From a plasmid, in the sequence record NZ_CP059482.1: 12,808 nt of DNA; one strand, 5' to 3'. Position numbers: made by a program. Below are positions 8,701-11,700 of the stretch, in pieces (positions within the stretch are counted from its first letter, which is position 1; every line of letters starts with the position of its first letter).

Positions 8701-11700
8701 TGGCAGTAGCACCAAGTCAAGATACAGTAATTTTTTTGCATATCATTGGTAGTCATGGACCAACTTATTATCTTAGATACCCGCCAGAGCATCGTAAATT
8801 TATACCGGATTGTCCGCGCAGTGATATTCAAAATTGCAGTCAAGAAGAACTGATTAACACCTACGACAACACTATTCTATATACGGATTTTATTCTCAGT
8901 GAAGTGGTGAATAAATTAAAAGGTAAGCAGGATATGTTCGATACTGCAATGCTGTATCTCTCTGACCATGGTGAGTCTTTGGGTGAAAAGGGCATGTATT
9001 TACATGGTGCGCCCTATAGTATTGCACCGAAAGAACAAACTAGCGTACCAATGCTGGCTTGGGTATCTAATGACTTTAGCCAAGATAATCAGTTGAACAT
9101 GACTTGTGTTGCACAGCGAGCAGAACAGGGCGGCTTTTCCCACGACAATTTGTTCGACAGTTTGCTAGGACTTATGAATGTAAAAACCACCGTCTATCAG
9201 AGCCAACTCGATATTTTTGCACCTTGCAGGTATTAGATATGGCTGTAAATGTTTTATCTTAGGGGTGACATATTCACCCCTTAAATCTTGGACTAACAAT
9301 GTCCTCTATTGTTACATTTAGCTCTCAATCTTCCACAATGAGTTATCACGGTCTTTTAGACTTAACATCAATTTGCCGTTGTGAAACTAGAACAATGGCT
9401 TACAAGCTGTAAATGCTAACTTTACATTTTTGGCGCGTTGGGCAAAATTAGCCTATTTATATCCCTTAGGATTATCTCATATGTGTGAAATGATGGTTTT
9501 TTGCAAAAAAACTCCTTGTTCAACATAAGCGATCTTGCACGCATCAAAAGGCTGCTTAAAGCGGCCTTGAAAATTACAACGTGATCTGAGGGTGCTTAAC
9601 ACCGCATGCTCTTGCGTATCGAGCCAGTGTTTCAATGCTAGCCTTAATCACATTAGATTCCATGCGAGAAACGGTAGGTGGAGTAACACCCATGCGTTCT
9701 GCCACCTGGGCTCTTGTTAATCCTGCGTGATGACGCCATTCAGCGAGCATAGCTTGAAGTCTTTCCTTGCGCTCCTCTGCTTCATAGGCTGCTTGAACCT
9801 CAGGATTAGACATCAATTCATTCCTAACATGCTCCCAAGCGATACCTTTAACTTTACTCATTTAGCATCTCCTTAAGACGTTCAAAGGCCATAGATATTT
9901 CACCCGATGGGGTTTTCTGAGTCTTTTTAATAAAGACTCTAAGTAGATAGATATTCCTGCCTTTCTGATAAACATAAAGACCTCTGGCAATATCCGTCCC
10001 CATCGTCCTTAACTCAAATAATCCATCCCGGAGTGGTTTGCTATCTGGCTCTCGTAATGCAGTAGCGTTGGTTTTAAGTTTATCAATCAGGCGAATCATC
10101 TTCGCTCTGACTACTGGCGGTAAGCCAGCCAGCTCATTTGGTACATCATCGTGCAATATGACGTTAAACACTGGTTCGCCCTCCATTGCGAAATATTAGC
10201 ATAAAAAGCAATTTGCGTTATAGGGTAATTTTATGGTTTTTCTGCTGTATTTAACATAAGCGATCTTGCGCGCACCGCCCGAACACCACTCGCCACAAAA
10301 ACCCGCCGGAACGTCCAAAAGTACGGGTTTTGCTGCCCGCAAACGGGCTGTTCTGGTGTTGCTAGTTTGTTATCAGAATCGCAGATCCGGCTTCAGCCGG
10401 TTTGCCGGCTGAAAGCGCTATTTCTTCCAGAATTGCCATGATTTTTTCCCCACGGGAGGCGTCACTGGCTCCCGTGTTGTCGGCAGCTTTGATTCGATAA
10501 GCAGCATCGCCTGTTTCAGGCTGTCTATGTGTGACTGTTGAGCTGTAACAAGTTGTCTCAGGTGTTCAATTTCATGTTCTAGTTGCTTTGTTTTACTGGT
10601 TTCACCTGTTCTATTAGGTGTTACATGCTGTTCATCTGTTACATTGTCGATCTGTTCATGGTGAACAGCTTTGAATGCACCAAAAACTCGTAAAAGCTCT
10701 GATGTATCTATCTTTTTTACACCGTTTTCATCTGTGCATATGGACAGTTTTCCCTTTGATATGTAACGGTGAACAGTTGTTCTACTTTTGTTTGTTAGTC
10801 TTGATGCTTCACTGATAGATACAAGAGCCATAAGAACCTCAGATCCTTCCGTATTTAGCCAGTATGTTCTCTAGTGTGGTTCGTTGTTTTTGCGTGAGCC
10901 ATGAGAACGAACCATTGAGATCATACTTACTTTGCATGTCACTCAAAAATTTTGCCTCAAAACTGGTGAGCTGAATTTTTGCAGTTAAAGCATCGTGTAG
11001 TGTTTTTCTTAGTCCGTTATGTAGGTGGGAATCTGATGTAATGGTTGTTGGTATTTTGTCACCATTCATTTTTATCTGGTTGTTCTCAAGTTCGGTTACG
11101 AGATCCATTTGTCTATCTAGTTCAACTTGGAAAATCAACGTATCAGTCGGGCGGCCTCGCTTATCAACCACCAATTTCATATTGCTGTAAGTGTTTAAAT
11201 CTTTACTTATTGGTTTCAAAACCCATTGGTTAAGCCTTTTAAACTCATGGTAGTTATTTTCAAGCATTAACATGAACTTAAATTCATCAAGGCTAATCTC
11301 TATATTTGCCTTGTGAGTTTTCTTTTGTGTTAGTTCTTTTAATAACCACTCATAAATCCTCATAGAGTATTTGTTTTCAAAAGACTTAACATGTTCCAGA
11401 TTATATTTTATGAATTTTTTTAACTGGAAAAGATAAGGCAATATCTCTTCACTAAAAACTAATTCTAATTTTTCGCTTGAGAACTTGGCATAGTTTGTCC
11501 ACTGGAAAATCTCAAAGCCTTTAACCAAAGGATTCCTGATTTCCACAGTTCTCGTCATCAGCTCTCTGGTTGCTTTAGCTAATACACCATAAGCATTTTC
11601 CCTACTGATGTTCATCATCTGAGCGTATTGGTTATAAGTGAACGATACCGTCCGTTCTTTCCTTGTAGGGTTTTCAATCGTGGGGTTGAGTAGTGCCACA

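Follow-up and report, generated by a model that had tools for sequence, protein, structure and literature searches.

We analysed a 12,808-nucleotide stretch of plasmid record NZ_CP059482.1 (hereafter "the window," whose positions we use throughout). The window is a 12.8-kb colistin-resistance plasmid of the pMCR_R3445 type, which carries mcr-4, belongs to the pSC101/ColE10 family, and has additional copies of insertion sequences (IS). It encodes a toxin-antitoxin pair, higBA, between two Xer core sites, which we call A and B. We favor, with moderate confidence, the explanation that higBA is an Xer-bounded module that was acquired at psi, the multimer-resolution site of the pSC101 family, by Xer recombination between plasmids. 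Site B would then be the working psi, and site A would be a weak distal junction. On the minus strand, the order is repA, orf137, psi accessory DNA, site B, higB, higA, a terminator, and site A. After site A there is a spacer of 63 nt, and then the end of a transposon remnant that contains mcr-4.

Both cores are on the minus strand, in direct orientation, and their starts are 731 bp apart. Site B (10249..10276) comprises the XerC arm GGTGCGCGCAA (10276-10266), the central region GATCGC (10265-10260), and the XerD arm TTATGTTAAAT (10259-10249). Site A (9518..9545) has the same central region (9534-9529) between the XerC arm GATGCGTGCAA (9545-9535) and the XerD arm TTATGTTGAAC (9528-9518). (A preliminary description of this DNA had reported two 28-bp sites in the same orientation, and its sequences and coordinates are exact.) The two sites are identical at 24 of 28 positions, with a longest exact run of 17 bp, and the repeat is confined to the cores (25-28 nt in common). 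Both fit the core format, which we took from the recognition rules of Fournes et al.: 28-30 bp in all, with an 11-bp XerC arm, a central region of 6-8 bp, an 11-bp XerD arm, and conserved inner bases (..AA / TTAT..).

It might be argued that site A is a relic without function or resembles a core only by chance, that psi and higBA are an old "stability block," and that the flanks have been varied by IS elements, transposons, and homologous recombination. We think this is unlikely, and the first reason is the core itself. We scanned the window with a degenerate consensus for plasmid Xer sites, allowing up to 3 mismatches. Only A and B matched, and shuffled sequences give an expectation of 0.01 matches. 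We also built a position weight matrix from the 130 enterobacterial Xer sites catalogued by Fournes et al. 2025 (PMC11724359 supplement). Site B scores 37.1 bits (the 94th percentile of the catalogued sites) and site A scores 18.8 bits (the 3rd percentile). No other site in the window exceeds 6.3 bits, and 30 shuffles reach at most 13.6 bits. The XerC arm of site A is typical (23rd percentile). The exact run of 17 bp, the 24/28 match to B, and a score far above the shuffles are not what chance would give, so, judging by its sequence, site A is an Xer-like core.

Between the cores lie higB and higA and no other genes, as previously described. The toxin reading frame (110 amino acids; 9854..10186, minus strand) matches the Gp49 family (Pfam PF05973, E = 5e-24). 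Elsewhere it is annotated as a protein of 105 amino acids that starts from a GTG at 10171, with the RefSeq name RelE/ParE family toxin. (The original description of pMCR_R3445 names "toxin RelE" only.) The antitoxin (95 amino acids; 9574..9861, minus strand) is an XRE-family protein with a helix-turn-helix (HTH) domain (Pfam HTH_3, PF01381, E = 2e-13; also HTH_31). The toxin gene comes first, and higA overlaps it by 8 nt. By sequence homology, the pair is a type II toxin-antitoxin system in the HigBA arrangement. We considered whether HigA could be XafT ("VC1465 Xer recombination activation factor") and rejected this: its score is 17 bits where the cutoff is 70, and only the HTH is similar.

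The edges of this gene pair are close to the cores. A 77-nt leader (10172..10248, minus strand) runs from the XerD arm of site B to the annotated start of higB. It contains the palindrome GCAAATTGC at 10208-10216, and it is presumably the promoter/operator of higBA. (A simple scan of 9400-10450 for sigma-70 promoters and terminators gave no strong match for higBA.) In all of the plasmid relatives, this leader is in register behind different Xer cores. Downstream of higA is a terminator-like hairpin (9548..9571; AAGGCCGCTTTAAGCAGCCTTTT on the minus strand), and it is here that homology between the higBA units of different plasmids stops. Site A follows directly after the hairpin, 28 nt past the stop codon of higA, rather than abutting the stop codon as had been proposed.

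We then considered which of the two cores could resolve plasmid multimers. Identity to pSC101 is 99.5% over 10250 to 12808, a region with core B and the 2.5 kb of accessory and replication DNA beside it. The psi of pSC101 is GGTGCGCGCAA-GATCCA-TTATGTTAAAC, and site B differs from it at 3 of 28 positions (two bases in the central region and the last base). Hence, the preliminary description's match to the psi core with room for accessory sequences was right about the homology and the accessory DNA, although the match is not exact. The accessory DNA (10277..10450, minus strand; ArcA/PepA type) is on the XerC side of B and overlaps the 3' end of orf137. It was identified from its identity to pSC101 and from a multi-lineage alignment, in which pSC101, Yersinia, Moellerella, and the locus L052 align. 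In sites of the psi or cer type, the XerC arm is flanked by accessory DNA of about 180-200 bp that includes a box for ArcA or ArgR. Only site B has this; in site A, the corresponding flank is coding sequence of higA. The supplement of Fournes et al. 2025 (PMC11724359) gives a 28-mer identical to B as an xrs. For a related Pantoea plasmid (CP009884), that catalogue has one site, which is equal to B, with an "ArcA" accessory sequence, and site A is not recorded. These comparisons indicate that site B is a genuine psi homologue and probably the plasmid's working site for multimer resolution. The plasmid does not have two candidate resolution sites, as had been suggested, because only B has the accessory DNA that is needed for resolving plasmid dimers.

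In pSC101-type plasmids, psi is also where the cargo begins. These plasmids have the XerC side in common, and from the XerD arm onward their sequences are entirely different. On that side, the cargo can be IS102 and tet (in pSC101), a type ISP restriction-modification system, lipopolysaccharide genes (in Serratia), an adhesin gene, or higBA. The Serratia plasmid with lipopolysaccharide genes has the core GGTGCGCGCAA-GAAGACG-TTATGGTAAAT. Four metagenome contigs have exactly core B and psi accessory DNA with other cargo, such as an adhesin-like gene. A comparison with pSC101-type plasmids that lack higBA had been proposed as a check, and those we examined have a single psi with unrelated cargo on the XerD side. 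The XerD-side flank of site A does not seem to be the ancestral flank of psi: its alignments with the pSC101, type ISP, and Serratia plasmids were no better than shuffles.

The evidence that carries our proposal comes from higBA units in other plasmids. Identical or homologous units are joined to six different XerC arms, in different backbones. The order is always central region, XerD arm, 67-77 nt, higB-higA, and terminator. In pairwise comparisons with BLAST, the unit common to the backbones is 700-730 bp, and it begins in the core and ends just past the terminator. Besides the GGTGCGCGCAA arm of the window, a second arm is found in the metagenome contig that we discuss below (L021/L054). 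The other four arms are in small plasmids that encode relatives of HigB with 90-94% identity, again 67-77 nt behind the XerD arm. Their proximal cores are GGTGCGCGTAA-GATCGGA-TTATATTCAAT (contig L026), GGTGCGGGAAA-TGCAGA/TGTCGA-TTATGGTAAAT (Rop-type plasmids of Plesiomonas), GGTTCGCTAAA-TGTCGA-TTATGGTAAAT (contig L045), and CATACGCACAA-GATCGC-TTATGTTAAAT (contig L062). A comparison of L027 with L045 splits the core: its XerC arm belongs with the upstream module, and the rest of it (central region and XerD arm) with the downstream module. So the idea that higBA is a discrete, Xer-delimited unit is borne out, in that the unit is joined to different Xer sites in different plasmids. This also argues against the old stability block. 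Six XerC arms are in register with the unit, some of them with unrelated accessory DNA, so homologous recombination within a common backbone cannot account for the joints.

Some of these plasmids have more than one module in a row. Contig L062 (CANRON010000150.1, 1-1001) begins exactly at a psi-type core, GGTGCGCGCAA-GATCCC-TTATGTTAAAT. This is followed by an AT-rich gene for a lipoprotein of 192 amino acids, a second core, and higBA, which makes a direct array of two modules. L045 and L027 have three direct cores each.

Three other contigs deserve comment. In L045 (ENA ERZ27313647 k141_70350, 3673-5897), which is a small mobilisable plasmid contig, the higBA homologue is behind the three direct Xer-like cores. 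Beyond higBA are a PAP2 gene and then a phosphoethanolamine transferase of 549 amino acids that is 44% identical to MCR-4; it may be another plasmid-borne mcr-like gene. L026 (ENA ERZ27247390 k141_5331) is a Rep_3 plasmid contig with two close pairs of Xer-like cores. In each pair the cores are inverted, with a plus-strand core and then a minus-strand core within 18 nt (1116-1143/1162-1189 and 3641-3668/3687-3714). The second pair is just past higA, and a TIR/NTPase defence-like gene follows. We did not use contig L048 as evidence because, with its second cer-like site and inverted segments, it looks like a complex or chimeric metagenome contig.

As a control, we considered higBA copies outside of small plasmids. 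Chromosomal copies in Yersinia, and copies in integrative and conjugative elements there, had no Xer-like site within 3 kb. Among 80 further loci from species genomes (320 kb, mostly chromosomal), the only one with an Xer-like site was the small contig L062. Altogether, about 90 relatives on chromosomes or otherwise not on small plasmids lack an Xer-like site.

One contig appears to have captured recombination at site B. In L021/L054 (ENA ERZ26882179 contig NODE_150), the window's higBA DNA, site A, and the flank of A match a ColE10 relative at 99.98% identity. Here they follow cer-like accessory DNA and another XerC arm (GGTGCGCCGAA-GATCGC-TTATGTTAAAT). Eight kb upstream of this hybrid core is a Rep_3-orf137-psi backbone, which ends in GGTGCGCGCAA-GAGATG-TTATGGTAAAT. 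Between the two cores (at 1535-1562 and 9586-9613) is 8 kb of ColE1/Rop-type DNA. The contig is thus an apparent natural cointegrate, formed at site B through Xer cores, of a pSC101-type plasmid and a ColE1/Rop-type plasmid. The hybrid cores are reciprocal, and each of the central regions (GAGATG and GATCGC) came from the partner on the XerD side. In CTXphi and at cer, the exchange of XerC strands is completed by replication. Given this known XerC-first mechanism, the central regions of the hybrid cores fit an exchange of XerC strands that was finished by replication. If site A were a relic beside an old block, these reciprocal hybrid cores would not be expected.

At the distal end of the unit, a direct Xer-like site past the terminator is present in four lineages: that of the window, Moellerella, L026, and L027/L032. 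That these sites are always direct is another point against a relic. The distal site of L026 is TTAATACATAA-TTATCA-TTATGTTAAAT. In Moellerella, it is CATGCGTGTAA-GAGATG-TTA, with a central region unlike the window's, and it is interrupted by an IS630-family element. We considered whether the break in the Moellerella site could be an Xer crossover and rejected this, as an IS630-family element has inserted at a TA in the XerD arm and accounts for at least part of the break.

Several observations weigh against our proposal. First, the XerD arm of site A (TTATGTTGAAC) is atypical and falls in the lowest 1% of the catalogued sites by weight matrix. Second, although site A is kept in all near-identical copies, the roughly 30 copies with both A and B are nearly clonal, so their conservation tells us little about function. 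Third, we found no recognisable site after higA in Yersinia pB-8086-2, L062, L028/L029, or L045. A distal core is thus found in some lineages and not in others, and in some of the exchanges the second crossover may have been elsewhere. Fourth, homology breaks mostly at the outer edge of the XerD arm, which is highly conserved. Such breaks are expected from Xer exchange but do not prove it. Fifth, the L021/L054 and L04x contigs are metagenome or draft assemblies.

Some of these facts would suit a relic: the XerD arm of A is poor, and Yersinia pB-8086-2 and contig L062, which are both among the closer plasmid relatives, have psi-higBA but no site A, so the bracketing pair is not obligatory. A relic would also suit the XerD-side flank of A, which is crowded with IS5-family, IS26, IS630, and Tn6926-type elements in every lineage, and the XerD-side flanks have no detectable homology between plasmids.

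Does the module still excise? Recombination between A and B, at an appreciable rate, could free a 731-bp circle that can reinsert, with the toxin removing cells or plasmids that lose the module. The geometry is what deletion requires, as the cores are direct and have identical 6-bp central regions. In E. coli, marker genes between directly repeated psi sites were deleted efficiently, but both copies of psi had accessory DNA. Hall and co-workers also detected deletions experimentally between pdif sites with identical spacers in Acinetobacter. Nevertheless, we doubt that higBA is an active cassette of this kind, for several reasons.

First, recombination between A and B should leave the deletion junction GGTGCGCGCAA-GATCGC-TTATGTTGAAC (28-mer GGTGCGCGCAAGATCGCTTATGTTGAAC) and the circle junction GATGCGTGCAA-GATCGC-TTATGTTAAAT (28-mer GATGCGTGCAAGATCGCTTATGTTAAAT). 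Both junctions are absent from PLSDB, the complete genomes of E. coli, the GTDB species genomes, and a metagenome collection. The left flank of site A was never found without the cassette in PLSDB or the E. coli complete genomes. A degenerate 28-mer that covers A, B, and both products had no matches in the GTDB genomes; it had four matches in metagenome contigs, all of which were core B with other cargo. Second, recombination at plasmid psi relies mostly on accessory DNA, which site A lacks, and the psi core is not activated by FtsK in vitro (Fournes et al., Table 1). Third, a directly repeated relBE cassette in Acinetobacter, whose identical central regions are the same as those here, was not excised, and the authors favor cointegration and resolution. 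Fourth, given how toxin-antitoxin systems work in general, loss from one copy of a multicopy plasmid would not trigger killing. Overall, the sequences do not support active excision. The preliminary description's ~0.73-kb circle, lost under counter-selection by the toxin, finds no trace in the four collections, has a poor partner in site A with its weak XerD arm, and runs against the behavior of the Acinetobacter cassette.

We also considered whether the paired cores could have a role today that is unrelated to mobility. They might loop or insulate higBA and tune its expression, or site A might modulate dimer resolution at psi. The positions are suggestive: in all plasmid relatives, the XerD arm of B (or its counterpart) is only 77 nt upstream of higB, beside the presumed promoter, and site A is directly after the terminator. 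But several relatives have an intact higBA and no distal site, and a module boundary is a simpler account of the register. We consider such a role very improbable.

We return to the acquisition of higBA as an Xer-bounded module. The polarity of the module is central region, XerD arm, promoter, higB, higA, terminator, and XerC arm, as expected for DNA that was joined to a plasmid at an Xer core. It would have entered the backbone by XerCD recombination between the Xer cores of plasmids. The route would be cointegration of two plasmids at one core, followed by resolution at another. Formally, this is equivalent to the integration of a circle that bears the core GATGCGTGCAA-GATCGC-TTATGTTAAAT. 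We favor cointegration over excision because of the experiments with the Acinetobacter cassettes. Integration by XerCD at psi had been proposed before; the unit does behave as an Xer-delimited module on various cores, but neither a free circle nor an empty site was found in the collections searched. Site A would be the distal junction core that the acquisition left behind. Because its XerD arm is degenerate and accessory DNA is missing, it is probably now a weak or silent partner, so that the module is effectively fixed. In place, the module would act as an addiction system beside the resolution site.

The rest of the plasmid is consistent with its family. Record MF543359 aligns to the window from end to end, except for IS insertions. 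The Rep_3 initiator gene repA (10839..11798, minus strand; Pfam Rep3_N and Rep3_C) is of the pSC101/ColE10 type, and RepM from Acinetobacter is 24% identical to its product (E = 9e-15). Beyond site A, mcr-4 (7611-9236, plus strand) is inside the remnant of a Tn6926-type transposon of the Tn3 family. The outer end of this remnant (its terminal inverted repeat; 9405..9454, about 50 bp) was recognized by multi-copy matching, as it recurs in many unrelated plasmids from Shewanella, Acinetobacter, Klebsiella, and Salmonella. The matches include Acinetobacter and Salmonella plasmids that are given as carriers of Tn6926 in PMC10272872, as well as the Shewanella plasmids. This end is 63 nt from the XerD arm of site A. 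In the Pantoea and L059-type relatives, an IS26 end is 1 nt from the same point. The AT-rich spot that adjoins core A may be a hot spot for insertions. Farther away, two inverted copies of a reading frame of 354 amino acids face each other (2235-3299, minus strand, and 3575-4639, plus strand); in relatives, this position is annotated as an IS110-family transposase (DEDD_Tnp_IS110). A DDE_Tnp_1 transposase of 285 amino acids (IS5-family type) is at 4894-5751, and IS26 is at 6501-7223. Together with the pair of 354-amino-acid frames, these make up the 4 kb by which the window is longer than pMCR_R3445.

Between repA and psi is orf137 (10418..10831, minus strand), which encodes an HTH_17 protein of 137 amino acids. 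We identified it as a homologue of OrfX using NCBIfam and BLASTP. It matches NF038291 ("plasmid replication DNA-binding protein") with E = 4e-17 and 63 bits, which is below the cutoff of 85, and it is 37% identical (E = 1e-11) to OrfX from A. pittii p2_100004, a plasmid in Hall's Table 4. Using tblastn, we found relatives of orf137 in 2334 plasmids, including 77 from Acinetobacter. In many ColE1/Rop-type plasmids, the homologue adjoins rop and is upstream of a cer-like core. (Some homologues are annotated as "entry exclusion protein 1," and the reference record for pSC101 has no intact copy.)

These results have some practical consequences. The presence of higBA beside psi helps to account for the persistence of mcr-4 ColE10 plasmids, and the second core (site A) merits annotation. 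The related plasmids suggest that such units are swapped between plasmids at Xer sites, which has been described so far mainly in Acinetobacter. A broader idea is that the small plasmids of Enterobacterales and Plesiomonas (pSC101/Rep_3 and ColE1/Rop types) have an unrecognised Xer cassette system. It would consist of modules that bear their own promoter, each ordered as central region, XerD arm, genes, and XerC arm. These would form direct arrays at the resolution site, as with psi, the lipoprotein module, and higBA in L062, or with the three direct cores of L045 and of L027, and they would be exchanged by XerC-initiated cointegration. This is a tentative idea, and on balance we think it is doubtful. 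If it is true, then the pSC101 family is the enterobacterial counterpart of the Rep_3/OrfX dif-module plasmids of Acinetobacter, and the conserved OrfX-like HTH gene beside the core may encode a dedicated cofactor. What the OrfX-type protein does could then be tested in E. coli, where Xer genetics are mature. Small mobilisable plasmids of Enterobacterales, including carriers of mcr-4, could gain or swap addiction modules and other cargo without transposases, and the classical psi and cer resolution sites would be tied to gene acquisition.

How does this locus compare to known Xer systems? Like psi of pSC101 and cer of ColE1, site B has a 6-bp central region and a consensus XerD arm, as well as the XerC arm and accessory DNA of psi. 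Unlike those model sites, it has a second direct core, without accessory DNA, 731 bp away. Two Xer sites have also been reported for plasmids of the pPCP family in Yersinia pestis (PMC11724359 supplement). One of these has a truncated accessory sequence of the ArcA type, and the other is of the ArgR type, with a core that is apparently inactive.

Small enterobacterial plasmids may also be reshuffled by another combination of mechanisms. Zakharova et al. 2002 and Tran et al. 2012 (qnrB19 plasmids) reportedly describe cointegrates that formed at oriT and were resolved at Xer sites. As in our proposal, ColE1-type Xer sites would reshuffle cargo as cointegrates form and resolve. But that work, as cited, does not include arrays of direct cores, or discrete cassettes with promoters that follow Xer cores in register.

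The architecture and polarity of the locus also fit integrative mobile elements exploiting Xer (IMEX), such as CTXphi, TLCphi, VGJphi, and the gonococcal genetic island. In both cases, foreign DNA is, or here probably was, inserted at an Xer site, with two direct cores of which one is good and one is degenerate, and the hybrid cores keep the central region of the partner on the XerD side. Unlike IMEX, the target here is a plasmid resolution site instead of chromosomal dif, and the insert is just 0.73 kb and encodes neither replication or phage functions nor an Xer activation factor. For higBA, a free circle and an empty site were not found in the collections that we searched.

Finally, the dif (pdif) modules of Acinetobacter, on Rep_3/OrfX plasmids (Blackwell & Hall 2017; Ambrose, Xiao & Hall 2026, PMC13141974), are part of a system that Hall and co-workers call unique to Acinetobacter. 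There are several differences. The usual dif modules have inverted cores, and the cores here are direct, which is the exceptional "CD" configuration in the Hall nomenclature. (The pdif-type architecture of the preliminary description therefore applies insofar as a gene set lies between two cores with 6-bp spacers, but in the rarer "CD" or an IMEX-like form. The close pairs of cores in L026 are nearer to the inverted arrangement.) The proximal core here is a classical psi with ArcA/PepA accessory DNA, unlike the pdif sites, and a single psi stands in the backbone in place of two inverted pdif sites. Across the plasmids we compared, module boundaries coincide with cores at the proximal end throughout and at the distal end in four lineages only. 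The hosts are Enterobacterales and Plesiomonas instead of Acinetobacter. We also considered whether HigB is a relative of a dif-module toxin, but it has no detectable similarity to the RelE/ParE toxin of p2_100004. There are also likenesses. Both systems have small gene sets, often toxin-antitoxin pairs (including higBA types), between 28-bp cores with 6-bp spacers. In both, one module is found behind different partners, and cointegrates form at the cores. And in both, a Rep_3 repA is followed by an HTH gene of the OrfX type (here a homologue that scores below the NCBIfam cutoff) and then by an Xer core whose XerC arm faces the backbone.

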